Shown here: positions 32,980-54,550 of the stretch, one piece after another
Position numbering within the stretch: the first letter of the stretch is position 1
Layout: every line of letters begins with the position of its first letter
Assembly: GCA_963753225.1 (NCBI GenBank)
Contig: CAVWBQ010000013.1
Span: forward strand, 167,041-231,040
From: an uncultured Actinomycetota bacterium
Lineage (GTDB): Bacteria; Actinomycetota; Actinomycetes; Streptosporangiales; Streptosporangiaceae
DNA length: 64,000 nucleotides
Reading direction: 5' to 3'
Translations under genes and position numbers: made by a program
Notes under the pieces: generated by a model
What the model was told of the DNA's origin: nothing
The model's input: only the letters and a program-made list of their open reading frames with translations
The model's database searches: none

Positions 32980-33227
32980 GAGGAGGGTACCTTTCCGCTC
33001 GTTTTAACTCTGCCATCCCGGCAGGCGGGCGACGTTTTTCGGTATACACGAATTCATCGCCTTGGCATGTTCGGTCACCATCAGGTTTCACCTTCAGGTT
33101 AAGATTTAGAGTTTTTTCCGTCCGCACGATTGATACGGACAGTAGGGTCGGACGGCACCCGGGTCAACTAACCACGCGCGAACCGGTCAGCGTGTCGCGG
33201 ATCGGCGGGTCTGAGCATCAGGCCAGA

Positions 33228-34010
33228 TCACTTGGCCGCGACGGACCCCGGCGCGCTCACGTCGTAATAGCGCATGTGCGATCGCATGAGGACGGTCAAC
33301 TCCCGCGCCTTGACCCCGGCCCGGCCGGTGTCGCCCCAGAGCACCGTTATCCCGTCGGCCAGGTACAGGGTCACCTGATCTGGCTCCGGCGCGTCGACCG
33401 ACGTCACTGAGTGCCGCAGCGTGGCGGGCAGCTCGCCGAGGACGGCGGCGGCCGCGGCCAGACCCGGATCGCCGCGCAGCGTGCCCACGGGGACCGCGGT
33501 GGCAAAGAGCGGCAGCCCGGCCGGGTGCCCGGCGGCCCACCGCACCACCACGCCGTCGGCGTCGACCAGGTCGTATCCTCCGCCCGGTGCGGGCAGGGCC
33601 AGGGCAGGCGTCCGCTCCCGCACCACGACGGTCAGCCGGTCCGGCCATGACCTGGTGACCTGCACGCTGCGGACCTGCCTGATCGCCTCGATCCTGGCCG
33701 CCGCCCTGGCGGTGTTCACGCGGATCAGCGGGGTGCCGAGCTGGACGCCGGACACGGCGAGAACCTCGGACCGCGGCACTAGGTGCGTCCCGCTGACGGT
33801 CACCGAGCGGACCACCAGCAGCGGCGAGCCGAACAGGACCCAGGCCGCGGCGCCGGTCACGCCGATGGCCGCGAGGACGAAGAACGCCGCGCGCCAGGCC
33901 GGGCGCTGTTTTACCGTCTTAACACGAGAAGTCGGGCTGTCACCAGCGGCTTCATCGTGGGAGGTTCGCGGGTCCGCACCGCCGGAGATGATGCCGCCGG
34001 GGCCGGTCAC
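33228..34010 (-). CDS. ftsQ: cell division protein FtsQ (POTRA domain)
   Basis: 260 aa. TM helix is AAFFVLAAIGVTGAAAWVLF, then SPLLVVRSVTVSGTHLVPRSEVLAVSGV..GTPL..V........I.....V.SV.V.R.WP..L.V.V.ER. GTG 34010 overlaps the murC stop (GTGA). Confidence 0.85.
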   Translation of the reverse strand: MTGPGGIISGGADPRTSHDEAAGDSPTSRVKTVKQRPAWRAAFFVLAAIGVTGAAAWVLFGSPLLVVRSVTVSGTHLVPRSEVLAVSGVQLGTPLIRVNTARAAARIEAIRQVRSVQVTRSWPDRLTVVVRERTPALALPAPGGGYDLVDADGVVVRWAAGHPAGLPLFATAVPVGTLRGDPGLAAAAAVLGELPATLRHSVTSVDAPEPDQVTLYLADGITVLWGDTGRAGVKARELTVLMRSHMRYYDVSAPGSVAAK

Positions 34011-36569: not shown

Positions 36570-36576
36570 ATGTTTT

Positions 36577-37872
36577 TTACTTTCGGCGCTTGGACAGACC
36601 GAGCCAGCTTAGAACGCGCAGCGGCCAGCCGGGGCCACGTGCGGCCAAAGCCTCGCGGGCACCGGGCTCCAGCCGGGCGAGCGACATCAGCATGCCCAGC
36701 CCGACCAGTGTCACCAGCAAGGATGATAGCCCGGCGGAGACGAGCGGCAGCGGGACTCCGGTGATGGGCAAGATGCCGATCACCGCTCCGATGTTGATGG
36801 CCGCCTGGACCACGATCCACGCCGTGATTGCGGTCGCGGCCATGCGGCAGAACATGTCCGGCACGCGGCGGGCGATCCTGAGGCCGGCGAAGGCCAGCCC
36901 GCCGTACAGGATGGTCACGCACAGCGTGCCGACGAGCCCGAGTTCCTCGCCGATGATGGCGAAGATGAAGTCGGTGGTCGATTCCGGCACCCAGCCCCAC
37001 TTGCCCCCGCTGGCGCCGAGGCCAACGCCGAACCAGCCGCCAGAGCCGACCGCGTACTTGCCCTGGATGCTCTGCATGTTGACGCCGGTGGCGCTGCCCT
37101 GCCCCTCCAGGTAGCCGGTCAGGCGCTGGAAGCGGTACTTGGCCGAGACGATCATCAGGAGCATGGCCAGGGCCATCAGGATCAGCACGCCGCTGAAGAC
37201 CCGGCCGGGGGTGCCGATGACCCACAGCAAGGCGAGGAAGATGACCAGCAGGATGAACGTGGTGCCCAGGTCGTCGCCCGACATCACGAGCAGGCATAGC
37301 ACGCCCGCGCCGGGCATGAGCGGCACCAGCATGTGCCGCCAGTCGGCCAGCTGGCCGAACCTGTCCTTGCGGGCCAGCAGGTCGGCTCCCCACATGGCCA
37401 GGGCGAGCTTGGCGATCTCCGAGGGCTGTACCTGCTGCCCGCCGATGTTGATCCAGCGCGAGGCGCCGTTCTGCGTGACGCCGACGCCGTGGATGAGGGT
37501 GAGGCAGAGCCCGACCACCGAGACCGCGAGCAGCGGGTAGGCCAGGGCGCGGAACAGCCGTGGCGACGAACGCGCCGCCACCCACATCAGCGGCAGGCCG
37601 ACGCAGGCGCCCAGGAGCTGCTTTTTGAAGTCGGAGTAGGGCGAGAGCCCGGCGGTCAGGTCGGCCACCGACGCGGTGGACTGCACCATCACCAGGCCGA
37701 GCCCGAGCAGCAGCAGGGTGATGCCCAGCACGAGGTAGTACGACGTGAGCGGCCGGTCGAGCAGCGCGCGCCACACGCCGATCCGTCCCCTGATGTCCCG
37801 CACACCGCCCAGGCCGGGAAGGCGCGGCGCGTCCTGCTCGGGCAGGTCAAGCTCCGCGAGATCCTGCTGCAT
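36577..37872 (-). CDS. ftsW: FtsW (SEDS-family peptidoglycan glycosyltransferase / lipid II flippase)
   Basis: Polytopic protein: ...RWINIGGQQVQPSEIAKLAL...MSGDDLGTT...AVGSGGWFGVGLG.S..K..W.PE..TDFIFA.IGEELG...LP.TGVPLP..S.G.SS. ATG 37872 is preferred over TTG 37902. Confidence 0.92.
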   Translation of the reverse strand: MQQDLAELDLPEQDAPRLPGLGGVRDIRGRIGVWRALLDRPLTSYYLVLGITLLLLGLGLVMVQSTASVADLTAGLSPYSDFKKQLLGACVGLPLMWVAARSSPRLFRALAYPLLAVSVVGLCLTLIHGVGVTQNGASRWINIGGQQVQPSEIAKLALAMWGADLLARKDRFGQLADWRHMLVPLMPGAGVLCLLVMSGDDLGTTFILLVIFLALLWVIGTPGRVFSGVLILMALAMLLMIVSAKYRFQRLTGYLEGQGSATGVNMQSIQGKYAVGSGGWFGVGLGASGGKWGWVPESTTDFIFAIIGEELGLVGTLCVTILYGGLAFAGLRIARRVPDMFCRMAATAITAWIVVQAAINIGAVIGILPITGVPLPLVSAGLSSLLVTLVGLGMLMSLARLEPGAREALAARGPGWPLRVLSWLGLSKRRK

Positions 37873-37998
37873 GGTCCCAGTGTGTTGGCCGGCCCGCAGC
37901 AAGACCGGGACATCCGGTGCGTGTCGCCGGATTTGACCGGTGACCCGCCGCGCCAGGCGAGATGAAGTTGGATCGTTAATCTGGCATGATGTGACCCA

Positions 37999-38178
37999 AT
38001 GAGCAGGTCAGAGTCTTCTCGTTTCCCGGTGACGGTTTCCCGGCTTCCCGTAACACGCTGCGAGGTATGCGGGCGTACCCTCGCCTACCGGCCCGGCCAG
38101 GCCAGCGCGGTGCTAACCCAGCACTACAACCGGATGCACCCCGAAGCCCTCACCGGCACGCCGGACAAAACGCGTTAA
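37999..38178 (+). CDS. possible 59-aa zinc-ribbon-like small protein (below the track length cutoff)
   Basis: Hand-translated as MSRSESSRFPVTVSRLPVTRCEVCGRTLAYRPGQASAVLTQHYNRMHPEALTGTPDKTR, with a C-x2-C...H-x4-H spacing. Third-position GC is fairly high. There is no clear Shine-Dalgarno sequence. Confidence 0.3.
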   Translation: MSRSESSRFPVTVSRLPVTRCEVCGRTLAYRPGQASAVLTQHYNRMHPEALTGTPDKTR

Positions 38179-38216
38179 ACGGGCTACCGCCGCCGGAACC
38201 CGCCCGGATAGGCTGA

Positions 38217-38732
38217 GTGATGGCCATCGCGGCGATGATCGCATGGGTCGTCACCGCCAGCATCGGGTTCTACATGCTGCGCACCTGGGTGACGCGCGGC
38301 GGCCTGCGGCGGCAGCGCTCCACCGGGGTCGGGGTCCCGCCGGCGGTGGTCTTCGGCCATGCCAGCGCCGCCCTTACCGGCCTGGCGATCTGGCTCGGCT
38401 TCGTCGACACGGGCCTGGACCTGCTCGCCTGGATCGGCGTCGCGGTGGTCACCGGCGCCATCGCCCTGGGCGTGTGCACGGTCACCTTGTGGACGCCCTA
38501 TCCGGTGGCCGTCCCCCCGGCCCCTCCGCCCCCTGAAGCCGTCGCCGGGGCACCCGCTCCCGCGGACGGGAGCACTATCACCGACGAGATGATCGCGAAA
38601 CTGCTGGCCAACCCGGTCCGGGCCTCGCGCAGGCCGCGGCTCAAGCTGGTCCCGCTCATCCCGGTGGCGCACGGCTTCGCCGCGCTGACCACGTTCATGC
38701 TCGCCGTGCTGGCCGCCATTAGCGCCCGATAG
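38217..38732 (+). CDS. integral membrane protein (4 predicted helices, Pro-rich loop)
   Basis: 171 aa: IAAMIAWVVTASIGFYML, VVFGHASAALTGLAIWLGFV, LLAWIGVAVVTGAIALGV, LIPVAHGFAALTTFMLAVLAAI. No family recognised. Confidence 0.55.
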   Translation: MMAIAAMIAWVVTASIGFYMLRTWVTRGGLRRQRSTGVGVPPAVVFGHASAALTGLAIWLGFVDTGLDLLAWIGVAVVTGAIALGVCTVTLWTPYPVAVPPAPPPPEAVAGAPAPADGSTITDEMIAKLLANPVRASRRPRLKLVPLIPVAHGFAALTTFMLAVLAAISAR

Positions 38733-38806
38733 GTAGGTTTTAATCCCATTCGTTCCCCGCCTACCCCGGTTGGGCCGTCGGCGCGCTCGTCAGGCAGTCT
38801 GGATCC

Positions 38807-39643
38807 ATGGCAGAAACGCTGACAATGATGGCCGTACACGCGCACCCCGACGACGAGGCGTCGAGCACGGGCGGCGTACTGGCGGCCTACTCGGCCCAGG
38901 GCATCCGGACCGTGGTCGTGACGTGCACCAACGGGGAGTTCGGGGACGCGACCGGCGGGGTCAAGCCCGGCCAGAATGGGCACGACGAGCAGGCCGTGGC
39001 TCAGCAGCGACTCGCTGAGCTGCGCGAATCCTGCGCGATCCTGGGCGTGACCAACCTGGAACTACTCGGCTACCACGATTCCGGCATGCCGGACTGGGAC
39101 TATAAGGACCGGCCGGACGCCTTCTGCAACATCCCTGAGGCGGACGTGGCGGCCCGGATCTCAGAGCTGATCGAGGTGTACCAGCCGCAGGTGCTGGTCA
39201 CGTACGACGATCAGGGGCCGTACCAGCATCCCGATCACGTGCATGCGAGCCGCTCGGCCCAGAAGGCGTTCGCCGCCAGCGGCAGCGTGGCCAAGCTCTA
39301 CCTCAGCGCGATGCGCGGCAGTGACTGGCGGAAGATCTGGGAGGCCCTGCGCGAACTCGGCGCCGACGTGCCCGACTTCGAGAACCCGGACGCGGAACGA
39401 CAGCGGCGGGGGCTCGAGTCCGAGCAGCGCATCACCACCACCGTCGACATCCGGCAGGTGCTCCCCCGCAAGCGCGAGGCCCTGTTCGCGCACGGCAGCC
39501 AGATCGGCGGCGAGTCGTGGTTCAGTAAGATCCCCCAGGACATCGCCGAGGCCACCTTCGGCCGCGAGAGCTTCATCCGGGTCAGTGACAGCACCGGCGC
39601 CCCGCTGCCAGAAGACGACCTGTTCGCGGGCCTGCGGCCATGA
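38807..39643 (+). CDS. PIG-L/LmbE-family deacetylase (MshB/Mca-like)
   Basis: 278 aa: LTMMAVHAHPDDEASSTGGVLA...VVVTCTNGE...LGYHDSGMP...VTYDDQGPYQHPDHV. Confidence 0.85.
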   Translation: MAETLTMMAVHAHPDDEASSTGGVLAAYSAQGIRTVVVTCTNGEFGDATGGVKPGQNGHDEQAVAQQRLAELRESCAILGVTNLELLGYHDSGMPDWDYKDRPDAFCNIPEADVAARISELIEVYQPQVLVTYDDQGPYQHPDHVHASRSAQKAFAASGSVAKLYLSAMRGSDWRKIWEALRELGADVPDFENPDAERQRRGLESEQRITTTVDIRQVLPRKREALFAHGSQIGGESWFSKIPQDIAEATFGRESFIRVSDSTGAPLPEDDLFAGLRP

Positions 39644-40533
39644 CCGCCGGGTCCTACGCCGACGCCGCGGGGCTGGTCGAGCGGTCCGCCGCCGCGTACG
39701 CGGCCGCCGTGCCGGTCACGCCGGAGGACGACGGCTTCTTCGGGCCAGGGAGCGTGACCTGGCGGGTCAGCACGGATCTGGCCGCACCGGTGGCGGGACT
39801 CCGGTCACTGCTCATCCAGGCGCTGCACCCGCTGGCAATGGCCGGAGTCGACCAGCACAGCGACTGGCGCACCGATCCGGTCGGCAGGCTCGCGGCCACC
39901 TCCGCCTACGAGGCCACGGTCACGTTCGGGGACCGGGCCGGCGCCGCCCGGGCTGCGCGGCAGGTACGGGCCATCCACGAGCACGTCCGCGGCGTGGACA
40001 CGGTGACCGGCCTGCCGTACGCGGCCGGCGACCCGGCGCTGCTGCTGTGGGTGCACGCCGCCCTGGTCGATTCGGGCCTGGCCGCGAGCACCCTGTTCGG
40101 CACGCCGCTGACCGCCGCGGACGCCGACGGCTACGTGGCCGAGATGACCATCGCGGCCGAACTGCTCGGGGTGCCGCACGAGATGATCCCGGACAGCGTG
40201 GCCGCCCTCGGCCGTTACTTCGCCGGGGTCCGGCCGGACCTGCGCCGCACGCCCGCGGCGGCGGAGTCGATGAGCTACCTGCTCGATCCGCCCGGGCTCG
40301 ACGAGGACATCGCCGAGCTGTGGCAGGACATCAGGGACGCCGCGCTGCTGGCGCTGCCTGACTGGGCCATCCAGATGTACGGATACGCCGAGCCGCCACC
40401 GCTGACGGCGGAACGGCGGACCGAGATCCGCCAGGCCCTGGGCGTGCTGGACGCGGTCTTCCTGGGCGAACCCGGCGTGCTGGAGGCCCGGCAGCGGATC
40501 ATCGCGCGGATGCGTTCGGCGGGCAGGAAGTGA
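39640..40533 (+). CDS. DUF2236 / MpaB-type oxygenase-family protein
   Basis: 297 aa: GPGSVTWRVSTDLAAPVAGLRSLLIQALHPLAMAGVDQHSDWRTDPVGRLAATSAYEATVTFG....A......VR.IHEHVRG. ATGA overlap with the preceding gene. Confidence 0.78.
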   Translation: MTAGSYADAAGLVERSAAAYAAAVPVTPEDDGFFGPGSVTWRVSTDLAAPVAGLRSLLIQALHPLAMAGVDQHSDWRTDPVGRLAATSAYEATVTFGDRAGAARAARQVRAIHEHVRGVDTVTGLPYAAGDPALLLWVHAALVDSGLAASTLFGTPLTAADADGYVAEMTIAAELLGVPHEMIPDSVAALGRYFAGVRPDLRRTPAAAESMSYLLDPPGLDEDIAELWQDIRDAALLALPDWAIQMYGYAEPPPLTAERRTEIRQALGVLDAVFLGEPGVLEARQRIIARMRSAGRK

Positions 40534-41987
40534 GGGCGAGGCGCCTGGCGATCGCCGCGGGGATAGGCGCCGTCTCGGTCGCCGCGCTGACGCTGCTGCG
40601 GGGCAGGCAGGCTAGGAAGCTTAGGTTCAAGCGGGGCATGGCGACGGTGCGGCTGGCGGTGCGCGGCGGCGCGCGCTACGCGACCAGCGCGCCCCGGCTG
40701 TTCGCCAGCGCGGGCGAGCACCGGGAGGCACTGCGCAACGACCTGGCCCTGCAGACCGCCGAGGACGTCGCCGCCACCCTGGGGACGATGAAGGGCGTGC
40801 TGATGAAGCTGGGCCAGATGGCCAGCTACGTCGGCGACGGCCTGTCCCCCGCCGCCCGGCGGACGCTGAGCCGGCTGCAGGACAGCGTGCCCCCGATGAG
40901 CCCGGAACTGGCCGCCCAGGTCATCACCGAGGAGCTGGGCCAGCCGCCGGACCGGGTCTTTGCCACCTGGGACCCCAACCCCATCGCGGCCGCCTCGATC
41001 GGGCAGGTGCACCGCGCGATCACCCAGGACGGCCGCGCCGTCGCGGTCAAGGTGCAATACCCGGGCATCGCCGAGACGATCGAGGCGGACCTGGGCAACG
41101 TCGCGCTGCTGCGCCGGATGCTCAAGATCACCGCGCCGATGCAGGACGTGGACGCGCTGCTGGCCGAGCTGCGGGAACGCGTCACCGAGGAACTCGACTA
41201 CCGGCGGGAGGCCCGGAACCAGCAGATGTTCGCGCGCTACTACGCCGGCCACCCCACCATTAGCGTGCCCGGCATCGTGCCCGAACTGTCCACCCGCCGG
41301 GTAGTGACCGGCGAGCTGGCCGACGGCGCGCGGTTCGCCGAGCTCGCCACCTGGTCGCAGGCCGAACGCGACCTGGCCGCCGAGACGATCTACCGCTTCG
41401 TGTTCCGCAGCCTGTACGGGGCGCACGCGTTCAACGGTGACCCGCACCCGGGGAACTACCTCTTCCACCCCGGCGGGCGGGTCACCTTCCTGGATTTCGG
41501 CCTGGTCAAGTACTTCACCGCCGATGAGCTCCAGCCTCTGGTCGCGATGGTCAAGCACCTGTGCGTGGACGGCGACCCGGAGGGCTTCCGCCGCGCGATG
41601 GAGGACGCGGGCTTCCTGATGCACGGCGCGCCGCTGCCCACGGACATGATCGTCGAGCACATGGCGGTGTTCTACAACACGGTCCGCGAGCGGGGCCCGC
41701 GGACCATGACCGGAGCCTACGCCTCGGCGGTGACCAGGCGCTTCTTCGACTTCCGCAGCCCGCTCGCGGCCTACGTGCAGATCCCCAGGTCATACGTGAT
41801 CCTGCAGCGGATCAACCTGGGCCTGTTCGCGCTCCTCGGCGAGCTGTCCGCGACCGCGGACTGGCGCTGCGTCGCCGAGGAGATCTGGCCGTTCGTCCAG
41901 GGGACACCGTGTACCCCGATGGGTGCCGCCGAGGCCGAGTGGCGTGCCACCAGGACCAGGGCGGGCGACCTCAGGCCGTTCGGCTAG
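40530..41987 (+). CDS. ABC1/AarF/UbiB-family atypical protein kinase
   Basis: 485 aa: LGTMKGVLMKLGQMAS....LSP.......LQD.VPPMS...PIAAASIGQVHRA....GR.VAVKVQYPGI...I.ADL...DPHPGNYLF. GTGA overlap with the preceding gene. Confidence 0.9.
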   Translation: MRARRLAIAAGIGAVSVAALTLLRGRQARKLRFKRGMATVRLAVRGGARYATSAPRLFASAGEHREALRNDLALQTAEDVAATLGTMKGVLMKLGQMASYVGDGLSPAARRTLSRLQDSVPPMSPELAAQVITEELGQPPDRVFATWDPNPIAAASIGQVHRAITQDGRAVAVKVQYPGIAETIEADLGNVALLRRMLKITAPMQDVDALLAELRERVTEELDYRREARNQQMFARYYAGHPTISVPGIVPELSTRRVVTGELADGARFAELATWSQAERDLAAETIYRFVFRSLYGAHAFNGDPHPGNYLFHPGGRVTFLDFGLVKYFTADELQPLVAMVKHLCVDGDPEGFRRAMEDAGFLMHGAPLPTDMIVEHMAVFYNTVRERGPRTMTGAYASAVTRRFFDFRSPLAAYVQIPRSYVILQRINLGLFALLGELSATADWRCVAEEIWPFVQGTPCTPMGAAEAEWRATRTRAGDLRPFG

Positions 41988-43423
41988 AAATTACCGAACT
42001 GCGGGAACAGGTTGAACGGCCGCAGGTACCTGGTCGGTGAGAAGCTGATGAAGGCCGGATCGGTCGGGACGATCTTGCCGCCCGAGGAGAAGATGTTGAG
42101 CTGCGGGCCGAGCGCCGCGGCCTGGGCGTTCATCGCGGCCGGGCTGGGCACATGCCACCGCCCGGTGGCCAGGCGGTTCTCCAGCGTCTGGACCGCGGCG
42201 ACGGTCTCGGCCGGGGTAAACGCGCAGTGCCCGGCGCGGTGCACGAAGACCTGGCGGAGCAGGCTGGCGCGGCCGGCCCGGTCGACGGCGCTGCGGTACG
42301 CCTGCTCGTTCTCCGGCACCACCAGCCCGTCGCCCGTGGTGTGCATCGTGAGCACCGGGACCGAGATGCTGCCATTGAAGGCGATGTTCTTGATCAGGTA
42401 GGCCTCGGCGTTCGGGTTGGCCTTGACCCGCGGCGAGTTGTTCAGCGTCAGCAGGTCCTTGGTCAGGCTGAGCCCGGCCGCCTGGTAGAGCGCCACGACC
42501 TCCTTGAAGTCGGCGGACTTGGCCAGGTCGGCGAAGTAGTTCACGCCGGTGTTCCAGGACGGGTTGCCGCCGGCCCGGCCCTCGAGTTCGGCGCGGAAGG
42601 CGAAGACGAACGGGAAGGTCACCTGCGATCCCCACAGGAACTGGTTCGCTTCCTGGGCGGCGTAGTCGGTGGCGGCGGGTTCGGGCGACAGCGGGGTGAA
42701 CCAGCCGGGGGTGTCGCCCAGCGCCGAGACCAGTGCGAGGCGGGCCCGGCCCTGCGCGTTCTGCTGGGCCGAGGCCCCCGCGGTCTCGGCAGCCTGCAGG
42801 TTGGCCGTGGGGTTGGTGATGTTGACGACCTGGACCGCGGGGTCGATCAGCTTCTGGAACGCGAACTCCGCGTCGAGCGCGGTGTTCCAGGTGGCCACGC
42901 CGCCGGACAGCACGCCACACATGGGCAGCGCGGCGTCGAACCGCTTCGGGTAGTCCTGCAGCAGCCCGGCGGTGATGATGCCACCCAGCGAGTGCCCCCA
43001 GGCGACCGTCGTCTTGGGCTGGCCGTAGAGGCTGCCGAAGGCGTCCAGCGTGTTGATCTGGTCGGGCAGTGCCTGCGCGATGGCCCAGCCGGTGCTGGCG
43101 TAGGACGAGCCCGCGAGCGCGTAGCCGTGGCCGAGCATCCAGGCCGCGGTGGCCGGGTCGCCGACGTCCTGGGCCGGGTTGCTGCTGCCTGGCGTGACGT
43201 AGCCGTGGCTGTAGAGGTACAGCGTTCCGTTCCAGGCGCCGGGCGGGCACTGGAGCAGGTACGTCGCGCCGTCGCCCAGCTTCCCGTTGACCGTGGTCAC
43301 CGCGCCGGAACCGCCGCAGGTTGACGACGAGGCGGACGCCGCGCCTGCCGTGATCGCGGTAAGTCCGCCGATGGCCAGCCCGGCGGTAAGCACCAACCCG
43401 GCAATTTTCTTCGACCGCACCAT
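41984..43423 (-). CDS. secreted alpha/beta-hydrolase-fold protein
   Basis: Signal peptide is MVRSKKIAGLVLTAGLAIGGLTAITAGAASA. The nucleophile elbow is WGHSLGG. ATG 43423 is preferred over the track start at 43501. Its stop shares the tetranucleotide ctag (41984-87) with the convergent kinase gene. Confidence 0.72.
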   Translation of the reverse strand: MVRSKKIAGLVLTAGLAIGGLTAITAGAASASSSTCGGSGAVTTVNGKLGDGATYLLQCPPGAWNGTLYLYSHGYVTPGSSNPAQDVGDPATAAWMLGHGYALAGSSYASTGWAIAQALPDQINTLDAFGSLYGQPKTTVAWGHSLGGIITAGLLQDYPKRFDAALPMCGVLSGGVATWNTALDAEFAFQKLIDPAVQVVNITNPTANLQAAETAGASAQQNAQGRARLALVSALGDTPGWFTPLSPEPAATDYAAQEANQFLWGSQVTFPFVFAFRAELEGRAGGNPSWNTGVNYFADLAKSADFKEVVALYQAAGLSLTKDLLTLNNSPRVKANPNAEAYLIKNIAFNGSISVPVLTMHTTGDGLVVPENEQAYRSAVDRAGRASLLRQVFVHRAGHCAFTPAETVAAVQTLENRLATGRWHVPSPAAMNAQAAALGPQLNIFSSGGKIVPTDPAFISFSPTRYLRPFNLFPQFGNF

Positions 43424-43567
43424 CAACCCCACGCTCCCCAGCGCAGCTGACCCTGGACGAAAGTAACTTACCGGCAGGTCAGGCGAACGGGTAGATGTCA
43501 CCCCGGATTGGCTGAAACTACACGGAAACTACGCTGAATCGCGTCCTTGACGACGGGGGCGCCCCCT

Positions 43568-44317
43568 TTACGACCCGGCCGGTATGCGGTATACAGCCCG
43601 CAGCTCCGCGGCCTGGCCGGCGGGCAGTCGGCGCACGGCTTCGGTGAAGGTCACGCCGGACATCTGAGCCAGGTGGCTCCGCGTCCACGCGGCGACGTAG
43701 GCCGGGTCTTTCTTCGCCGTCTCGCGCAGTACCCAGCCGATCGCCTTCCTGATGAAGAACTCCTTCTCGGCCAGCATCGGCGTAGCGTACCGCTCGAACC
43801 GCTCGCGGTCGAGCCCGCCCCGCCTGACCCCGGGCAGCAGCGTGAGCAGGGCCGACCGGCGGACCCAGAAGTCCTCGTCGGTCGCCCACTCATCGATCAG
43901 CGGCCAGGCCGCCGGGTGCAGTAGCGCGACCGGGCCCGCGATGTCCCCGGCGAGCGGGTCCACGTAGGCCCAGCTGTGCGCCTGACGCACCCACGCCTCC
44001 ACCAGGGCCAGGTCGGCGGGCCGCAGGCCCCGCACGTGACGGCGCAGGACCTCGATGGCCGCGGTCCGCCGCTCGTGCACGGGCTCGCGCCACAGCGCAC
44101 GGGCCCAGGCCAGCGCTTCGTCCCGGCCGAGGCCGCGAAGAGAGCGGTCGGCCTCGACGACGGCGGCCCGGATGCCAGGCACGCCGACGCCGAGGAAAGC
44201 CAGGTCGCTCTTGAGGTATCTCTTCGCCTGCCCGGCCCGTTCCGGGTCGGCCAGCGGGCGCAGAGCCGCCATCACCGTGCTCGCGGCCGCTTCCGCGTCG
44301 AAGGCCGCACTGGTCAC
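43568..44317 (-). CDS. DNA alkylation repair protein (AlkD-like HEAT-repeat family)
   Basis: ...AKRYLKSDLAFLGVGVPGIRAAV...WREPVHERR.AAIE.L...EDFWVRRSALLTLL...EKEFFIRKAIGWVLRE. The start is uncertain: GTG 44317 is favoured, and the track ORF runs to 44467. Confidence 0.75.
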   Translation of the reverse strand: MTSAAFDAEAAASTVMAALRPLADPERAGQAKRYLKSDLAFLGVGVPGIRAAVVEADRSLRGLGRDEALAWARALWREPVHERRTAAIEVLRRHVRGLRPADLALVEAWVRQAHSWAYVDPLAGDIAGPVALLHPAAWPLIDEWATDEDFWVRRSALLTLLPGVRRGGLDRERFERYATPMLAEKEFFIRKAIGWVLRETAKKDPAYVAAWTRSHLAQMSGVTFTEAVRRLPAGQAAELRAVYRIPAGS

Positions 44318-44405
44318 CGGCACACGGTACCGCGGGCGTGCTTCGACCGGCGTCGCAACGTTTCGCCGCGAGAATGTGTTATCTGAGCTGAGGGAGGTTC
44401 GGTCC

Positions 44406-45023
44406 ATGCCACGGCAGAACCGGGTGACGCCGCACGGGGAACTGCTCGCCGTGCCCGATCGCGGCATGTTCTGGGGTAACCGCGGCCCGCTGCTGGACCA
44501 CGCGGGCCGGCTGGCCCGCTACTCCCGCGGGCAGGCCTGGGCCATCTGCGTGCTCTCGTTCAAGGGGCGGCGCCGACAGCAGTGGAGGCCGGGGCGGCTG
44601 ACCGAGTTGTACTTCCTCGACGAGGCCACCGGGCTGGCCGCCGGGCACCGGCCCTGCGGGGAATGCCGTTACCGGGAGTACCAGGCGTTCAAGCGGGCCT
44701 GGGCGGACGCCGCCGGCGGCGGCTCGGCCGGCGCCCCGGAGATCGACGAGCGACTGCACGCCGACCGGCTGGCCGGGCCCGGCGTGCGGCGCACCTACCG
44801 GGCGCCGCTGGCCGGGCTCCCTTCCGGGACCATAGTGAACCTCGGCGGAGCGCCCTGGCTGGTGCACGACGGACGGCTGCTGGCCTGGACGCCAGGCGGT
44901 TACCGGCAGCGCCCGGTCGAGGTGCTCGCCGGCCCGGTGACGGTGATCACCCCGCGGGCCACCGTGGCCGTGCTGGCGGCGGGGTACCAGCCGGTGCTTC
45001 ACCCGAGCGCGCTAGCCGCCTAG
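44406..45023 (+). CDS. conserved hypothetical protein
   Basis: 205 aa from MPRQNRVTPHGELLAVPDRGMFWGNRGPLLD... with a CGECRYREY motif. The upstream part of the 322-aa track ORF overlaps the divergent gene and looks like shadow. Confidence 0.5.
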   Translation: MPRQNRVTPHGELLAVPDRGMFWGNRGPLLDHAGRLARYSRGQAWAICVLSFKGRRRQQWRPGRLTELYFLDEATGLAAGHRPCGECRYREYQAFKRAWADAAGGGSAGAPEIDERLHADRLAGPGVRRTYRAPLAGLPSGTIVNLGGAPWLVHDGRLLAWTPGGYRQRPVEVLAGPVTVITPRATVAVLAAGYQPVLHPSALAA

Positions 45024-45044
45024 CCGCCTAGCCGCCTAGCCGCC
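45013..45044. repeat. 8-bp tandem repeat x4 (tagccgcc) spanning the stop codon of 44406..45023
   Basis: Four perfect, contiguous copies. Because 8 is not a multiple of 3, the TAGs fall in all three frames. Confidence 0.9.
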
Positions 45045-45059
45045 GGGAGCCTGGCCTGG

Positions 45060-45857
45060 TCATACTCGCAGGACCAGCCCGTCGTGTGCCGTCTCGCAGC
45101 AGGCCTGCTCCTGGCGCCCGAGCATGTCGGCGGACATGTGGGTCAGCACCGTGCGCCGGGCGGTGAGCTCGTCCCGGCGGGCGGCGAGATCCGCGTGCCG
45201 CAGGTGATGCGGCACGGCCTTGTCCCAGTAGTACGCCTCGGCGATGAGCAGGTCCGCGCCGGCCGCGGCCGCGGCGATCGCGGGCGTCCAGGCGGTGTCG
45301 CCCGTATAGGCGATGATCCTGTCGCCGAGGGTCAGCCGCAGGATCAGGGCCGGGGCGCCGCTGGGGTGGCTGGCCTGGAAGGCCTGCGCCCGCACCCCGG
45401 CCGCCACGGTGGCGGAACCGCCCGGGCGCAGCTCAGTCACCTCGACCGCGAACCGGCGCCGTACCCGGGAGGAGCCGGGGAACATGCACTCCATCGCCTC
45501 GGCGAGCCGCTGGCCGGTGCCGGCCGGGCCGGCCACGACCAGGGGCGCGGTGCGCCCGGCGAACTGAGCGTCGAGGATCAGGAACGGCAGCCCGCCGAAA
45601 TGGTCTCCGTGCAGGTGCGAGACGAACACGGCGGCGATCCCGCCCGGGTCAAGGCCGCACCGCCGCAGCGCGGGCAGCGACGTCGCGCCGCAGTCCAGCA
45701 GCACCGGGGCGACCCCAGCGACCCCGGCGGGCCCGGCCGGCCCGGCCGGCCCGGCCGACTGCAGGTGGATGCAGGCCTGGAAGCGGCCCCCGCTGCCGAA
45801 CGCGTCGCCGGAGCCGGCGAAGGTCACCGTGACCCCGGCCGGGTCCGGGCTAGCCAC
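45060..45857 (-). CDS. MBL-fold metallo-hydrolase
   Basis: VTVTFAGSGDAFGSGGR...LLDCG...VFVSHLHGDHFGGLP (HxHxDH)...YTGDT...THM. GTG 45857 overlaps the MarR 3' end by 8 nt. Confidence 0.82.
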   Translation of the reverse strand: MASPDPAGVTVTFAGSGDAFGSGGRFQACIHLQSAGPAGPAGPAGVAGVAPVLLDCGATSLPALRRCGLDPGGIAAVFVSHLHGDHFGGLPFLILDAQFAGRTAPLVVAGPAGTGQRLAEAMECMFPGSSRVRRRFAVEVTELRPGGSATVAAGVRAQAFQASHPSGAPALILRLTLGDRIIAYTGDTAWTPAIAAAAAGADLLIAEAYYWDKAVPHHLRHADLAARRDELTARRTVLTHMSADMLGRQEQACCETAHDGLVLRV

Positions 45858-46326
45858 CGAACCAGCCGGGGACGTCGAGCCGGAACGTCTCGCCCGGCAC
45901 CATGGTCCGCAGCCCGGCTTCCAGCCCGGCCAGGCGGTCGGCGCCCAGCGTGCCTGCCCACCGTGACCGGATGTCATCGAAGATCATCGCGGACAAGGCG
46001 AGAACTTCGACGCCACGCGGGGTGAGGCGGGCCAGCCTGCGCCGCCGGTCGGCGTCATCGCCGGCGCGCTGCACGTAGCCGAGTTCCTCGAGCCGGTCGA
46101 TGGTCTTGCCCGCCGCCTGCTTGGAGATTCCGAGACGGCGGCCCGTCTCGGTGGCGGTGGCCCCGCCCGGGCCTATCGCCTGCAGCGCGAAGCCGTGCGC
46201 CGGGCGCACATCGGGATGGCCGCGGCGGGCCAGTTCGGCGTGCAGCTCGTCGATGATCGACCGGAACCCTCCGAACAGCAGCAGCGGCAGCTCGAAGCCG
46301 TAGGTGTCATTTGACATGATGGACAA
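45850..46326 (-). CDS. MarR-family transcriptional regulator
   Basis: 158 aa: FALQAIGPGGATATETGRRLGISKQAAGKTIDRLEELGYVQRAGDDADRRRRLARLTPRG. Confidence 0.9.
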   Translation of the reverse strand: MSIMSNDTYGFELPLLLFGGFRSIIDELHAELARRGHPDVRPAHGFALQAIGPGGATATETGRRLGISKQAAGKTIDRLEELGYVQRAGDDADRRRRLARLTPRGVEVLALSAMIFDDIRSRWAGTLGADRLAGLEAGLRTMVPGETFRLDVPGWFGG

Positions 46327-46341
46327 CCTTGTTTACTGTTT

Positions 46342-46360
46342 TAGACAACCTAGTTGTCTA
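46342..46360. promoter_or_regulatory. perfect 8-bp inverted repeat tagacaac-cta-gttgtcta; candidate operator of the adjacent MarR
   Basis: It lies in the 52-bp divergent intergenic region between the MarR gene (start 46326) and the CMD-GNAT gene (start 46379). A further gacaac half-site lies at 46322-27. Confidence 0.5.
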
Positions 46361-46378
46361 CCTTACCGGAGATAGACC

Positions 46379-47602
46379 ATGTCTGCTGACGTCATGCCCG
46401 GCTCCTCCTTCACCGAGCACGGTGTCTCTACCGGGCACAGTGTCCCTACCGGGCACAGTGTCTCTACCGGGCACAGCGCCTTCACCGAGCACAGCATCGA
46501 GTCCGCGCCGCCGGCCGCCCGCCGGTTCATGTCCGCGACCAGGAACCACCTGGGCTACCTCCCGGCGGCCATGGCCCGGATGGCGGCGTCGCCGGAGCTC
46601 ATGGACGGTTTCCTGAAGCTCACCGCGATCTTCGAGAACACTTCGCTCGAGCCTGTGGCGCGCGAGGTGCTGGTCATGACGGTAGCCACGAGGAACCGCT
46701 GTCACATCTGCGTGGCCATGCACACGGCCAGGCTCACCGCTCTCGGCGCCGACCCCGGGCTCATCGCGGCGCTGCGCGACCCGGACCGCGCCGAGCCGCT
46801 CCCGGACGAGCGCCTCAACGCGGTCCGCGTGTTCACCGTGCGGGTCCTCGACACCGCGGGCGACGTCGGCGACCGGGCGCTGCGCGACTTCCTGGCCGCC
46901 GGCTACACGACCCAGAATGCGCTCGAGGTCGTGCTCGGCGTCGGCACCTACACGATGTCCACCCTGGCCAACCGGCTCACCGGCGCGCCCGTGGACGACC
47001 AGTTGGCCGCATACGCCTGGGCGTTATCGTGCAGCATGACGCAAAACGATGGTGACGCGCGGGTGACGCTGCGCCCGCTGGGACCGGGCGACCAGGACGA
47101 GTTCGTCACGCGGGCGCGGGCCAGCGTGAAACTGCACCATCCGTGGTACTCCATGCCCACGACACCCAAGGAGTTCCGGACCTACCTGGCCAAGTTCAGC
47201 CAGCCGACCGCCGAGGGGTTCCTGGTCTGCCTGCGCGACGGCGGCACGCTGGCCGGCATGGTCACCATCGACTCGATCATCCGGGGACGCTACCAGTCCG
47301 CCAGCTTGAGCTACGCGGCGTTCGCGGCCGGGGCCGGGCGGGGCTACATGTCCGAGGGGGTGGCCCTGGTGCTGCGGTACGCGTTCAGCGAGTTGCGGCT
47401 GCACCGGCTCGAGGCCAGCATCCAGCCGGCCAACCAGGCCTCGCTGCGACTGGTCGGCCGGCTGGCTTTCCGCAAGGAGGGCTACTCACCCGCCATGCTG
47501 TTCATCGACGGCGCCTGGCGAGACCATGAGCGGTGGGCCATCACCCGCGAGATGACAGATTTCCCTCCGGTCGACCCGCACCCCACCCTCCCCACCCGCT
47601 GA
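46379..47602 (+). CDS. carboxymuconolactone-decarboxylase (AhpD-like) domain fused in frame to a RimJ/RimL-type GNAT acetyltransferase domain
   Basis: CMD part: REVLVMTVATRNRCHICVAMHTARL. GNAT part from MTQNDGDARVTLRPLGPGD...GRGYMSEGVALVLRYAFSELRLHRLEASIQPAN.AS..L. There is no stop between them. Alternative starts are ATG 46529 (CMD) and ATG 47036 (GNAT). Confidence 0.72.
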   Translation: MSADVMPGSSFTEHGVSTGHSVPTGHSVSTGHSAFTEHSIESAPPAARRFMSATRNHLGYLPAAMARMAASPELMDGFLKLTAIFENTSLEPVAREVLVMTVATRNRCHICVAMHTARLTALGADPGLIAALRDPDRAEPLPDERLNAVRVFTVRVLDTAGDVGDRALRDFLAAGYTTQNALEVVLGVGTYTMSTLANRLTGAPVDDQLAAYAWALSCSMTQNDGDARVTLRPLGPGDQDEFVTRARASVKLHHPWYSMPTTPKEFRTYLAKFSQPTAEGFLVCLRDGGTLAGMVTIDSIIRGRYQSASLSYAAFAAGAGRGYMSEGVALVLRYAFSELRLHRLEASIQPANQASLRLVGRLAFRKEGYSPAMLFIDGAWRDHERWAITREMTDFPPVDPHPTLPTR

Positions 47603-47612
47603 GGATGACTTC

Positions 47613-47920
47613 AACCGCCATGATGTGACATCGTGACGGTTAGCTTAGGTAAGCTTAGCTAACTGCGCGTCAGTTATTAACACGCGGGTTTGATCTCGGG
47701 TGCGAGCGGGCGGGCGGTAGCCGCGGCGGCGGTGCGGGGCGGCGGTAGCCGCGGCGGTACGGGGCGGCGGTTCTGGGTCGAAGTGCCGGTGGTCCGGTTC
47801 TAGCCGGACCAACGGCCCATCGACCCAGCGGCTACCACATCAGCGCGCCAGAAATCCCGAAGCGACGGGTTATTTTAAGACGCGCGCTTATAACCGCAAC
47901 GATGTGACATCGTGGCGGTT
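47613..47920. repeat. copy B (uninterrupted) of the long-palindrome repeat element
   Basis: Terminal near-palindromic hairpins: aaccgccatgatgt-g-acatcgtgacggtt (47613-41) and aaccgcaacgatgt-g-acatcgtggcggtt (47892-920). The two arms are imperfectly complementary to each other around the apex ggtccgg-ttctag-ccggacc (47791-47810). The left arm carries an internal tandem duplication of about 26 bp (about 47712-47764). Confidence 0.85.
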
Positions 47921-48001
47921 GCGGAGGTGCGGCGGGAGTGGCTCGTGTAAACGGAAGAGGTGCGAGTGGCAGGGGGCGCGCGGGAGGATGCAAGAAGGCG
48001 G

Positions 48002-48043
48002 CTGGGGTCAGCCGACGTAGAACTGGGGTCAGCCGACGTAGAA
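48002..48043. repeat. perfect 21-bp tandem duplication spanning the mraY stop codon
   Basis: ctggggtcagccgacgtagaa occurs at 48002-48022 and again at 48023-48043. In the mraY sense this reads TTCTACGTCGGCTGAccccag x2, the last four codons plus the stop plus 6 nt. Confidence 0.95.
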
Positions 48044-49072
48044 GATGCCGAGGCCCAGGGCCACGCAGATGCCGGCGATGATCCAGAAGCGGACCACGAC
48101 GGTGGTCTCGGCCCACCCGGCCAGCTCGAAGTGGTGCTGCAGCGGGGCCATCCGGAACACCCGCTTGCCGGTCAGCTTGAACGACCCCACCTGGATCACC
48201 ACCGACAGGGTGATGAGCACGAACAGGCCGCCGAGCAGGAGGAGCAGCAGCTCGGTCTTGGTGGTGATGGCCAGCCCGGCGAGCGCGCCGCCGAGGGCCA
48301 GCGCCCCGGTATCGCCCATGAAGATCTTGGCGGGCGGCGCGTTCCACCACAGGAAGCCGGTGCAGGCGCCCATCACGGTGGCGGCCACGATGGCCAGGTC
48401 CTGCGGGTCGCGAACGGCGTAGCACGCCGGGGCGAGGAACACCGTGCAGTCGTTCCGCAGCTGCCAGATCCCGATGATCATGTAGGCGGCGAGCGCCAGG
48501 ATGGCCGCGCCGGTGGCCAGGCCGTCCAGTCCGTCGGTGAGGTTCACGCCGTTGGAGGTCCCGGCCACCATGAAAATGACCCAGACCACGAAGAGCACCG
48601 GCCCGATGGAGATGCCGAAGTCGGCGTAGAAGGACAGGTGGGTGGATGCCGGGGTGAGATCGTATCCGTCCGGGAACCTGATCGCGAGCAGGGCGAACAC
48701 CCCGCCCACCACGGCCTGCCCGGCCAGCTTAGCCCCGCTGCGCAGGCCCAGGCTGCGCTGCATGTACAGCTTGATGAAGTCGTCCGCGAAACCGACCAGG
48801 CCCAGGCCGGTCATCAGGAACAGCACGAGCAGCCCGGACGCGGACATGGCGTTGCCGGTGACCACGTGGCCGATCAGGTAGCCGGTCAGCGACGCGATGA
48901 TGATCACCGTGCCGCCCATGGTCGGAGTGCCCCGCTTGGACAGGTGCCCGGCCGGGCCGTCGGACCTGATCTCCTGGCCGTAGCCGCGCCTGCTGAACGT
49001 CTTGATCGCCAGGGGGGTGCCGAACAGCGCGATGAACAACGACACGGCGGCGGACAACAGGACGGTCTTCAC
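48029..49072 (-). CDS. mraY: phospho-N-acetylmuramoyl-pentapeptide transferase
   Basis: 347 aa: ...KRGTPTMGG...GFADDFIKL...[13 protein letters not shown]...[12 protein letters not shown]...RMAPLHHHFEL-like ([12 protein letters not shown]). GTG 49072 overlaps the murF stop (GTGA). Confidence 0.96.
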
Positions 49073-50511
49073 TGGCCGGCCTCCCCCAGTAGAGCAGCGG
49101 CGACGCCTTCCAGGTGCGCCGCGCGGGACGCCTTTACCAGTACGACGTCTCCGGGCTTCAACCGGTTTGCAAGCTCCTCGAGCGCGGTCGCCCCGTCCGG
49201 CACCGCAAGCGCCTCGCCGGGCCAGGACCGCACGCGGCGCGCCCCGGCCAGCAGCGGCTCGGCCTCTTCCCCCACCGCGATGAGCGCGGCCAGCCCGGGG
49301 TCGGACACCCGCGCGGCGTACTCGCCGATGTCCTCGTGGCTGGCCCGCGAGGTGCCGCCGAGCTCGGCCATGTGACCGAGCACGGCGAACCCGCGGCCGC
49401 CCTGGGCTACGTGGACCAGGGCGTCGATCGCCGCCCGGACGGACTCGGGGTTCGCGTTGTAGGCATCGTTGATCACCGTCACCCCATCCGCCCGCTGGCG
49501 GACCTCCATCCGCCACCGGCTGCGCGCGACCGCCGCGCCGAGCCCGTCCGCGACGCCGTCGAGGTCCATCCCGAGCTCACGCGCCAGGGCCGCCGCGGCC
49601 AGCGCGTTCGGCACGTTATGCGCGCCATGCAGCCGTAGGCTTACCGGCGCGGAACCTTCGGGTGTCAGCAGGGTGAAGGACGGCCGTCCCAGCTCGTCCA
49701 GGCGGATATCCGCCGCTTTGACTGACGGCTGGGGCATGTGGGACTGGTGAGGCGTGCGGGCGTGCGGGCTGGCGCTGAACGTGACGACGCGGGCCTGGGT
49801 CCGGGCCGCCATGGCCAGCACGCGGGGGTCGTCGGCGTTCAGGATGGCCACGCCGTCCGCGGGCAGCGCCTCGACCAGTTCGCCCTTGGCCCGCGCCACC
49901 TGGTCAAGGCCGCCGAACTCCCCGGTGTGCGCGTGCCCCACGTTCAGCACCACGCCGTAGCGGGGCGGCGCGACGCGGCACAGGTGGGCGATGTGCCCGA
50001 TGCCTCGCGCGGACAGCTCGAGGACCATGTACCTGGTCGCGGCGTCGGCGCGCAGCACGGTCAGCGGATGGCCGAACTCGTTGTTGAACGAGCCTGCCGG
50101 GGCGATCGTCGGCCCGAGCCGCTCCACCAGCTGGGCGGCCAGGTCCTTGGTCGAGGTCTTGCCCGACGACCCGGTGATGCCGGCGATCCGCGCCGCGGGC
50201 AGCGCGTCCACCACGGACCTGGCCAGCGCGGCCAGGGCGGCCGGCACGTCCGCGACGAGCACCGAGGGCACCGGGACCGGCCGGGTGGCCAGCACGGCGG
50301 TGGCGCCCGCGGCCACCGCCGCGGCGGCGAAGTCGTGTCCGTCGGACCGCTCCCCCGCGACCGCGGCGAACAGCCCGCCGGGGCCGGCCCGCCGCGAGTC
50401 GATCACCACCTCGCCGCTCACCACGGCATCGGGATCGCCGCGACAGAGCCGCCCGCCGGTTATCCGCGCGATCCGCGCCAGCGTCAGGGGGATCACCGGT
50501 TCACCGCCCAT
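49069..50511 (-). CDS. murF: UDP-N-acetylmuramoyl-tripeptide--D-alanyl-D-alanine ligase
   Basis: [16 protein letters not shown]...NNEFGHPLT...[11 protein letters not shown]...N.G.AH.GEFG. The alternative start GTG 50496 would give a GTGA overlap with the murE stop. Confidence 0.94.
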
Positions 50512-52052: not shown

Positions 52053-52070
52053 GGGCTGAGGGTACCTCCA

Positions 52071-54532: not shown

Positions 54533-54550
54533 TGTCTGTGCCCCCTTGGG

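Follow-up and report, generated by a model that had tools for sequence, protein, structure and literature searches.

Structure of the dcw cluster in the window

The window analysed here is a 64,000-nucleotide stretch (G+C about 70%) of contig CAVWBQ010000013.1 from an uncultured bacterium of the Streptosporangiaceae, and it carries a dcw cluster (genes for division and the cell wall) which is split into two halves and has no murD. Both halves lie on the minus strand. Between the mraY stop (48029) and the ftsW ATG (37872) there are 10,156 bp with 11 unrelated genes on both strands, in the place where the canonical actinobacterial cluster has murD. The two halves are composed as follows.

Upstream half, 48029-56090, minus strand: mraZ-rsmH-ftsL-ftsI-murE-murF-mraY, intact
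mraZ, 55659-56090, minus strand: NCBIfam match above the curated cut-off
rsmH, 54551-55516, minus strand: NCBIfam match above the curated cut-off
ftsL, 54023-54532, minus strand: NCBIfam match above the curated cut-off
ftsI, 52071-54026, minus strand: named by position and by penicillin-binding protein (PBP)-family matches below the curated cut-offs
murE, 50493-52052, minus strand: NCBIfam match above the curated cut-off
murF, 49069-50511, minus strand: NCBIfam match above the curated cut-off
mraY, 48029-49072, minus strand: NCBIfam match above the curated cut-off; start placed by the GTGA overlap with murF
Downstream half, 28909-37872, minus strand: ftsW-murG-murC-ftsQ-ftsZ-yggS-sepF-yggT-divIVA, intact
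ftsW, 36577-37872, minus strand: NCBIfam FtsW
murG, 35454-36569, minus strand: NCBIfam match above the curated cut-off
murC, 34007-35482, minus strand: NCBIfam match above the curated cut-off
ftsQ, between murC and ftsZ, minus strand: Pfam call on the near-identical contig L001
ftsZ, 31471-32979, minus strand: Pfam call on L001
yggS, 30761-31474, minus strand: Pfam call on L001
sepF, 30181-30699, minus strand: Pfam call on L001
yggT, 29804-30091, minus strand: Pfam call on L001
divIVA, 28909-29829, minus strand: Pfam call on L001

These identities and coordinates confirmed the intactness of both halves, which had been described in a first-pass annotation made from the letters alone. Its statements that murD is missing from its slot and that unrelated genes on both strands (about 12 open reading frames (ORFs) in its count) split the cluster were also correct, as was its placement of the ftsW start at 37872; the longer TTG-started ftsW ORF showed no conservation in relatives. 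Searches by tblastn with the MurC, MurE and MurF of the window and five MurD proteins of relatives found no fourth Mur ligase in the 64-kb window, only murC, murE, murF and a relic of murD. No MurD-like ORF was present in 37873-48028, where the relic of about 60-100 nt was the only trace of the gene.

The canonical actinobacterial order, as found in Mycobacterium, Actinomadura and Microbispora, is mraZ-rsmH-ftsL-ftsI-murE-murF-mraY-murD-ftsW-murG-murC-ftsQ-ftsZ-(ylmD)-yggS-sepF-yggT-divIVA. The cluster of the window resembles it in that all genes except murD and ylmD are present, co-directional, in the canonical order and mostly translationally coupled, and its flanks are the usual ones (MoxR-DUF58-TgpA upstream, ileS and dnaE downstream). 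It differs in that the slot is filled with 10 kb of unrelated genes on both strands instead of murD, in that ylmD is lacking, and in the start codon of ftsW, which is inherited from murD. The locus of the window is still a dcw cluster, but it lacks two of the traits by which such a cluster is defined: an uninterrupted gene order and the presence of murD in its slot. A Mur ligase gene outside the cluster has a precedent within the Actinobacteria in Streptomyces, where murC is the gene concerned; in the Streptomyces loci compared here murG was followed by ftsQ/ftsZ with no murC match. The case of Streptomyces is different from that of the window, as another ligase is concerned, mraY-murD-ftsW is contiguous and no foreign genes are inserted.

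Distribution of the murD loss among relatives

The mraY-insert-ftsW layout was found in six other assemblies (L001, L002, L004, L006, L021 and L090). L001, a metagenome contig of the European Nucleotide Archive (ENA) that carries the MurG of the window, is 99.6% identical to and colinear with window positions 27493-46561, and it represents a different strain because it is without the 1.8-kb IS110-family insertion sequence (IS) of the window. L002, L004, L006 and L021 are species-representative metagenome-assembled genomes (MAGs), and L090 is a fifth MAG. These relatives come from different samples and assemblers, with contigs of up to 1 Mb, and the recurrence of the same arrangement excludes a misjoin, for which the first-pass annotation had proposed a check.

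One genome per GTDB species was scanned with MraY, which gave 80 loci on which all cluster genes were mapped. Every named genus examined keeps mraY-murD-ftsW, including Microbispora, Nonomuraea, Streptosporangium, Planobispora, Herbidospora, Actinomadura, Spirillospora and Streptomyces. In one radiation (Streptosporangiales), which consists mainly of MAGs of uncultured "Streptosporangiaceae" and to which a Trebonia sp. also belongs, 19 of the 29 species-representative loci were without murD in the slot, L003 being counted among them on a partial contig that ends in a CMD-GNAT gene, the gene after mraY; the other ten species keep murD. The slot was empty in ten species (L007-L012, L020, L022, L023 and L026), where mraY is directly followed by ftsW and the latter starts 80-230 nt past the mraY stop. 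The slots of about 1-1.6 kb in L015, L030 and L025 were considered as degenerate murD genes and rejected, as they hold an antisense gene for a pyridoxal-phosphate (PLP)-dependent enzyme like those of Cys/Met metabolism (L015, 11142-12614; L030, 11151-12323) or its remnant (L025, about 7000-7430). Judged by eye from the translation, this slot enzyme of the Trebonia sp. sub-branch is cystathionine gamma-synthase-like. In L005 the slot holds CMD-MarR only, and the large insert belongs to the subclade of the window.

In a neighbour-joining (NJ) tree of ten concatenated dcw proteins (4077 columns, 100 bootstraps), the radiation had 100% support. The window falls into clade A, a group without any murD-carrying member; this clade was monophyletic in 100/100 replicates, monophyly of the murD-less clades A and B together was obtained in 0/100, and the murD-carrying contig L087 was nested inside clade B at 100%. 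A recombinational regain of murD in L087 was considered and rejected: in genes on both sides of the slot, among them ftsW, murG, murC and ftsZ, L087 was closest to its murD-less neighbours. The simplest reading of this topology would be two, probably three, independent losses of murD.

The window also has no ylmD (Cu-oxidase_4 / YfiH-PgeF homologue), whose product is a homologue of the UDP-MurNAc-peptide editing factor, between ftsZ and yggS, which overlap by 4 nt (31471-31474). This gene was absent in all 14 murD-less loci that reach the site (L007-L012, L015, L020, L022, L023, L025, L026, L030 and L090), as well as in L001, and was present in 11/11 murD-carrying members of the radiation. It is likewise absent in Microbispora, Nonomuraea and Streptosporangium, all of which keep murD. 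Within the radiation, co-loss of ylmD appears to follow the loss of murD across apparently independent events.

A relic of murD directly upstream of ftsW

A conserved block was found directly upstream of ftsW in every murD-less genome compared. Its parts in the window are the following.

Relic of the murD 3' end, 37873-37930, minus strand: conserved block of about 60 nt
Box 1, 37908-37927, minus strand: GCGACACGCACCGGATGTCC, containing GACACGC (relic alignment)
-10-like hexamer, 37879-37884, minus strand: CACACT, at -12 to -7 relative to the A of the ftsW ATG
ftsW ATG, 37872-37870, minus strand: start codon of ftsW

The layout of the block is GCGCGACACGCGCCGGATGTCCC, about 24 nt, and GA(C/G)ACTGGGAnCATG, in which the final ATG opens the ftsW frame. 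The same block lies inside murD in more than 60 murD-carrying loci, about 200 nt before the murD stop, and there it encodes "..ARHAPDVPV..TDTG(V/I)MD..". It could be aligned with the 3' end of murD from the genera Streptomyces, Actinomadura, Nonomuraea and Microbispora and from related MAGs; the alignment of 27 sequences (16 murD-less and 11 murD-carrying loci) was gap-free apart from one base, and GCGACACGC, the A at position 2 and the T at position 6 of the hexamer, and the ATG were invariant in 27/27. Among the 16 murD-less sequences, column identity was 0.90 over box 1 and 0.79 over the stretch that runs from the hexamer to the ATG, as compared to 0.45 in the upstream flank and 0.52 in the other. 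Sequences of clade A and clade B shared 66% pairwise identity within the block and 28-34% on either side of it. In the tblastn search, MurD proteins matched window positions 37852-37950 (best E value 5e-5), which is the only MurD-like remnant in the interval.

The ORF that begins at the ATG of the relic reads into FtsW in 15 of the 16 murD-less loci, the remaining one (L007) being frameshifted. In several lineages the N-termini of these FtsW proteins (MDRVEEAARPG, MERVEQAARP, MDLVAEKAAQ, MERVVDAQAAG) resemble the MDxVVxEAAxLAxPGD of MurD. On this comparison, the start of ftsW is the former Met codon of MurD "TDTGVMD", with the first codons of ftsW derived from murD, and murD seems to have been erased in place, leaving an island of its 3' end and an in-frame junction to ftsW.

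A putative ftsW promoter in the relic

The block most likely represents an ancestral ftsW promoter which was embedded in murD and was kept when the rest of the gene decayed. A cis-regulatory function is suggested because the block is conserved without coding constraint. The hexamer resembles a -10 element, since only its positions 2 (A) and 6 (T) are invariant (nAnnnT), and from its location at -12 to -7 of the ATG a leaderless ftsW mRNA is predicted. The GACACGC box lies about 50 nt upstream of the ftsW ATG and agrees with the motif published for WhiA/WhiB. On the minus strand, GACACGCACC at 37916-37925 is a WhiA/WhiB-type motif upstream of ftsW.

In S. venezuelae, a GACAC site that lies upstream of ftsW in the dcw operon is footprinted by WhiA, with the chromatin immunoprecipitation (ChIP) summit 269 bp upstream of ftsW, and the authors inferred an ftsW-specific promoter (PMC3781837). 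In M. tuberculosis, where the WhiA/WhiB2 motif is GACACGCC, ftsW is activated by WhiB2, which binds upstream of the gene (PMC13473873). The WhiA/B target sepX has a leaderless mRNA (PMC10243135). The relic is similar to the ftsW promoters of both organisms in having a GACAC(GC) box upstream of ftsW, and in Streptomyces the homologous block lies within murD; by our own count, GACAC of the murD block in the Streptomyces locus L037 is about 185-230 nt before the ftsW start. Unlike that of Streptomyces, the putative promoter of the window is free of coding sequence, abuts the ftsW start codon and is predicted to give a leaderless mRNA. Dependence of the relic block on WhiA/WhiB is suggested by these motif matches. 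Counting of the WhiA-type decamer across the window was uninformative (16 matches, about 43 expected). Scans for terminators and consensus promoters found nothing at either junction of the insert, and no Rfam family was found in the window.

Searches for a gene supplying MurD activity

When the 120 best database homologues of the MurD of the sister lineage L013 were examined, 114 mapped at at least 73% identity to dcw-resident murD of murD-carrying lineages. All six close MurD homologues that were looked up lie in ordinary dcw clusters and none outside; a relocated, vertically inherited murD of about 60-66% identity would rank just below the best 120, so that its absence from them is weak evidence. 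The lineage of the window is very abundant in public metagenomes, where its FtsW proteins form clusters that reach 549 members.

A MurD2 (L-Glu ligase) and a MurL (epimerase) replace the canonical D-Glu-adding step in Xanthomonas oryzae, Micromonospora and Salinispora, and the pair is present in some actinobacteria; the specificity for D- or L-Glu has been related to E. coli MurD D182 and K348, at which MurD2 has Glu and Arg (PMC8788868). The only gene annotated as MurD in X. oryzae was found to be the MurD2 gene adjoining murL. The dcw clusters of the Xanthomonadales are presumably also without murD. In those organisms the MurD-like gene is paired with murL; in the window lineage, neither a MurD2-like nor a MurL gene was present among the sequences compared. 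NCBIfam holds no bacterial MurD2 model for classing candidates. In an exhaustive HMMER search, the MurD2 signature (EH / S-R-ATN) was found in none of the best 150 representatives of 50%-identity clusters; wherever the pattern matched, these representatives showed DH and DDSKATN, as canonical MurD does.

An "EH" variant, P0152, was considered as the MurD2 of the lineage and rejected because it belongs to the Kineosporiales. This MurD homologue, from a Joint Genome Institute (JGI) metagenome contig of 2.8 kb, has catalytic motifs that are degenerate: the P-loop GSNGKST, "TEHLD" for "xDHLD" and "DDSAAVN" for "DDSKATN". A pseudo-enzyme, a variant of different specificity and an artefact of sequencing are all conceivable. 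A further variant was seen in the dcw-resident MurD of the murD-carrying relatives L016, L017, L029, L043, L082 and L083 (e.g. P0056 and P0110), which reads "NVAGHHLDWH" as compared to the canonical "NVAPDHLDWH". There, His replaces the Asp equivalent to E. coli D182, the residue reported to influence the specificity for D- versus L-Glu.

Genes filling the mraY-ftsW gap

The 11 genes of the insert are listed from the ftsW side to the mraY side.

zn59, 37999-38178, plus strand: 59-aa Zn-ribbon-like ORF, weak Pfam zf-BED match (E 0.008), CxxC...H..H pattern
Membrane protein, 38217-38732, plus strand: Pfam scan; NCBIfam matches below cut-off, as for the insert core generally
PIG-L deacetylase, 38807-39643, plus strand: Pfam; NCBIfam below cut-off
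MpaB/Lcp-type (DUF2236) protein, 39640-40533, plus strand: Pfam; NCBIfam below cut-off
ABC1/UbiB-like kinase, 40530-41987, plus strand: Pfam; NCBIfam below cut-off
Secreted alpha/beta hydrolase, 41984-43423, minus strand: Pfam Peptidase_S9 and Abhydrolase_1; 479 aa as called on L001, the ORF extends to 43501
AlkD-like DNA alkylation repair protein, 43568-44272, minus strand: Pfam DNA_alkylation (2e-51); 234 aa as called on L001, the ORF extends to 44467
Hypothetical protein, 44406-45023, plus strand: no family in Pfam or NCBIfam; length 205 aa in the L001 gene call
MBL-fold hydrolase, 45060-45977, minus strand: Pfam Lactamase_B_2 (1.8e-24)
MarR-family regulator, 45850-46326, minus strand: Pfam MarR_2 (2e-11), divergent from CMD-GNAT
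CMD (AhpD-like) and GNAT acetyltransferase fusion, 46379-47602, plus strand: Pfam CMD and Acetyltransf_3 on L001; NCBIfam below cut-off

The insert core (37999-41987, plus strand) is transcribed divergently from ftsW. Its genes zn59, PIG-L, MpaB and ABC1 keep one order throughout the relatives with the large insert (L002, L004, L006, L021 and L090); the membrane protein had no match in L002 or L006. The zn59 ORF, which is directly divergent from ftsW, is 71-93% identical across all these relatives. A conserved ATCTGGCATGATGTG motif stands directly before its start codon.

The mraY-proximal end is variable, consisting of YjbR only in L090, of the hydrolase only in L004, and of the hydrolase with the hypothetical protein, MarR and CMD-GNAT in L002 and L021, to which L006 adds AlkD. 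The hydrolase was found in L002, L004, L006 and L021, with a YjbR gene in its place in L090; the AlkD-like gene occurs in the window, L001 and L006 only, and the hypothetical protein is conserved in L002, L006 and L021. The MBL gene is confined to the window genome and L001, with no match in L002, L004, L006, L021 or L090. MarR was present in L002, L005, L006 and L021, and CMD-GNAT in L002, L003, L005, L006 and L021, being absent in L004 and L090. No integrase or recombinase domain was found among the insert products by Pfam and NCBIfam, no tRNA gene in the window and no flanking direct repeats around the insert, and the G+C content of the insert (0.69-0.76) is similar to that of its flanks, with no compositional shift. 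The mraY-ftsW gap appears to behave as a permissive site at which genes have been gained and lost on many occasions since the loss of murD.

Three irregularities were observed elsewhere in the related loci. In L027 (10001-12154) a frameshifted murD is preceded by a tandem pair of mraY genes, with 73% and 69% identity to the MraY of the window, and in L083 (5548-7995) a gene call fuses MurF and MraY (815 aa); both may be real or long-read indel errors. In the murG-murC gap of empty-slot members of clade A (L010, 13455-14339; L011, 13527-14327; L026, about 13700-14220) there is a Pro/Gly-rich repetitive ORF of 150-300 residues, which appears to be a C-terminal extension of MurG. No hidden ligase was found in these gaps of L010, L011 and L026, only the Pro-rich extension.

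Repeats and the IS110-family element

The repeats near the mraY-side junction, and the insertion sequence elsewhere in the window, are as follows.

21-bp tandem duplication, 48002-48022 and 48023-48043: two copies of CTGGGGTCAGCCGACGTAGAA, exact (100% identity), spanning the mraY stop and its last four codons
Dispersed palindromic repeat element, 47612-47921: core 47663-47885, ends like terminal inverted repeats (TIR), central palindrome 47773-47828
Flanking hairpins of 29-31 nt, 47613-47641 and 47892-47920: folds of -13.7 and -17.8 kcal/mol, z -3.1 and -4.8
IS110-family insertion sequence, 25701-27494, plus strand: transposase 26039-27352, Pfam DEDD_Tnp_IS110 and Transposase_20

The palindromic repeat, the 21-bp duplication and an 11-mer shared by the two junctions had been described as scars of the split. 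All three exist, and none can be retained as a scar. The pattern of the palindromic repeat had no match in 100 shuffles of the window, and a second, inverted copy lies in the window (about 25590-25700 and 27495-27620), split at its central palindrome by the IS110. This second copy is unbroken in L001. The repeat is thus a dispersed element, and it is absent from the mraY junction in relatives, including those with the same insert; the hairpin arm had no match among the 88 loci compared. The hairpins stand at the ends of two convergent genes and may also act as terminators. The 21-bp duplication is exact and specific to the genome of the window, with a single copy in L002-L005 and L021, and would most simply be a slipped-strand event. 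The 11-mer of the repeat hairpin, CATGATGTGAC, does recur at the ftsW side (37985-37995), and 116 of 5000 junction shuffles shared some 11-mer with the other junction. It was rejected as a recombination scar: it belongs to zn59 because it is conserved directly upstream of the zn59 start codon in L002, L004 and L021.

The window's IS110 is flanked by the two repeat halves and is absent from the 99.6%-identical L001. It is similar to those IS110 elements that target palindromic repeats, having DEDD transposase domains and being inserted exactly in the central palindrome of a repeat of about 220-310 bp, and it seems to be the outcome of a recent transposition, specific to this strain, that had a palindromic target. 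No IS is present in the copy of the repeat at the mraY junction, and the IS110 is a bystander to the question of murD. None of the repeats, nor the 11-mer, is related to the murD loss.

Discussion

Based on the comparison of relatives and the murD relic, we consider it likely that the cluster of the window is a variant of the actinobacterial dcw cluster which is specific to one lineage and arose by erosion of murD in place. In the ancestor of the Trebonia-like radiation the dcw murD would have become dispensable, presumably because MurD activity was also encoded elsewhere. The gene would then have been deleted except for a segment of about 60 nt of its 3' end, the one which lies about 200 nt before the murD stop in murD-carrying actinobacteria. 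This segment may have been kept as an ftsW-specific promoter, with the GACACGC box about 50 nt upstream and nAnnnT at -12 to -7 of the ATG, while the Met codon of "TDTGVMD" would have become the ftsW start through the in-frame junction, with a leaderless ftsW mRNA predicted. The genes mraZ to mraY and ftsW to divIVA are predicted to form separate transcription units. Once the operon was broken, the gap would have been open to gene gain: it is empty in ten species, holds a PLP enzyme or its remnant in three and CMD-MarR in one, and the subclade of the window would have gained the divergent zn-ribbon/membrane/PIG-L/MpaB/ABC1 unit and the variable mraY-proximal end. The palindromic repeat and the 21-bp duplication would be later, genome-specific additions.

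The first-pass annotation had favoured a recent insertion or rearrangement, in which a mobile segment of about 10 kb between mraY and ftsW displaced or removed murD and the repeat, the duplication and the 11-mer are its scars. The repeats at the mraY-side junction, the active IS110 elsewhere in the window and the variable insert content among species speak for this explanation. We judge it very unlikely, because ten species have an empty slot and no murD, the relic points to a deletion in place, integrase, tRNA gene and compositional shift are all lacking, the repeat is a dispersed element not found at the junction of relatives with the same insert, and the 11-mer is a conserved zn59 motif. 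As ten of the 19 murD-less species have an empty slot, the loss of murD predates the insertion and is independent of it. The comparison of synteny with relatives indicates an old lineage trait, a possibility which the annotation had itself allowed for, and the split itself remains. An assembly artefact, i.e. a chimeric join in a metagenome contig or a collapsed region without murD, might be suspected since the window matches metagenome and MAG contigs and no isolate genome, and since some related MAGs have frameshifts. Its probability is close to nil, as the arrangement recurs in six assemblies, among them another strain without the IS110, and a conserved relic with an in-frame ftsW junction is unlike the product of a misjoin.

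A further explanation is a single ancient loss, in which the ancestor of clades A and B lost murD together with ylmD on one occasion and murD-carrying lineages such as L087 regained the genes by recombination, or in which there was lateral spread of the deletion allele. All murD-less lineages share the block, the use of its ATG and about 30 nt of murD coding sequence past it, and absence of ylmD tracks absence of murD exactly within the radiation (14/14 versus 0/11). The tree is against it, with A and B never monophyletic and L087 firmly in clade B; the L087 genes between murD and ylmD (ftsW, murG, murC and ftsZ) show no donor-like segment, and selection on the embedded promoter can explain convergent relics. 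A single loss appears unlikely to us, although it is the strongest of the alternatives. Pathway replacement, which is a specific form of the dispensability step in the erosion of murD in place, would mean that a non-orthologous or divergent route to the second stem-peptide residue, e.g. MurD2 and MurL encoded elsewhere, made the dcw murD dispensable. MurD2 and MurL do exist in some actinobacteria (PMC8788868), the sole annotated MurD of X. oryzae is a MurD2 next to murL, and the repeated loss of murD in one radiation suggests a pre-existing redundancy in its ancestor. The mapping of 114 of the 120 best MurD homologues to dcw-resident genes of murD-carrying lineages, with all six look-ups in dcw clusters, also fits, given how abundant the lineage is in metagenomes. 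No MurD2-like or MurL gene was found in the sequences compared, the best 150 representatives were canonical wherever the pattern matched, the sole "EH" variant is from Kineosporiales, and a relocated murD could rank just below the best 120 homologues. We regard this replacement as rather improbable. Equally doubtful is the stronger proposal that the Trebonia-like radiation has no canonical MurD, that its second stem-peptide residue is added by a MurD2/MurL-type or undescribed system, and that prior redundancy let murD and ylmD be lost two or three times.

Several points weigh against the erosion of murD in place as we propose it. The gene supplying MurD activity was not found in these searches, so the dispensability step is assumed. 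The tree is an NJ tree of the dcw genes themselves, and the downstream deletion breakpoints could not be mapped, which makes independent losses inseparable from the recombinational spread of one allele. Nearly all of the genomes are MAGs, some with frameshift errors. The promoter reading relies on sequence comparison, and GACAC is short and frequent, so the block is only a candidate for WhiA binding. A scan with the sigma-70 consensus found no promoter in 37500-38900; although such a result can be anticipated where a promoter depends on an activator and has no -35 match, it lends the promoter reading no support.

The mraY-murD-ftsW order is, to our knowledge, among the most stable gene orders known. 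In searches of the open-access literature, no description of an actinobacterial dcw cluster without murD was found, nor any work on the cell-wall genes of Trebonia. Our results indicate that an abundant soil actinobacterial lineage broke this order repeatedly, and the constraint is thus not absolute. The relic can be considered a natural experiment which separates two overlapping functions of the murD 3' end: when the coding constraint was gone, only the approximately 60 nt matching a WhiA/WhiB-type ftsW promoter stayed conserved. This comparative evidence supports the embedded promoter as essential across the Actinobacteria, and it suggests that a start codon, with a predicted leaderless mRNA, may be recycled from a dead gene. 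The concrete question raised by the lineage is where its MurD activity is encoded and why the loss of ylmD accompanies that of murD. Ordinary relocation may be the answer, or else a different pathway for the early steps of peptidoglycan synthesis, and the latter, if true, would be relevant to MurD-directed inhibitors.

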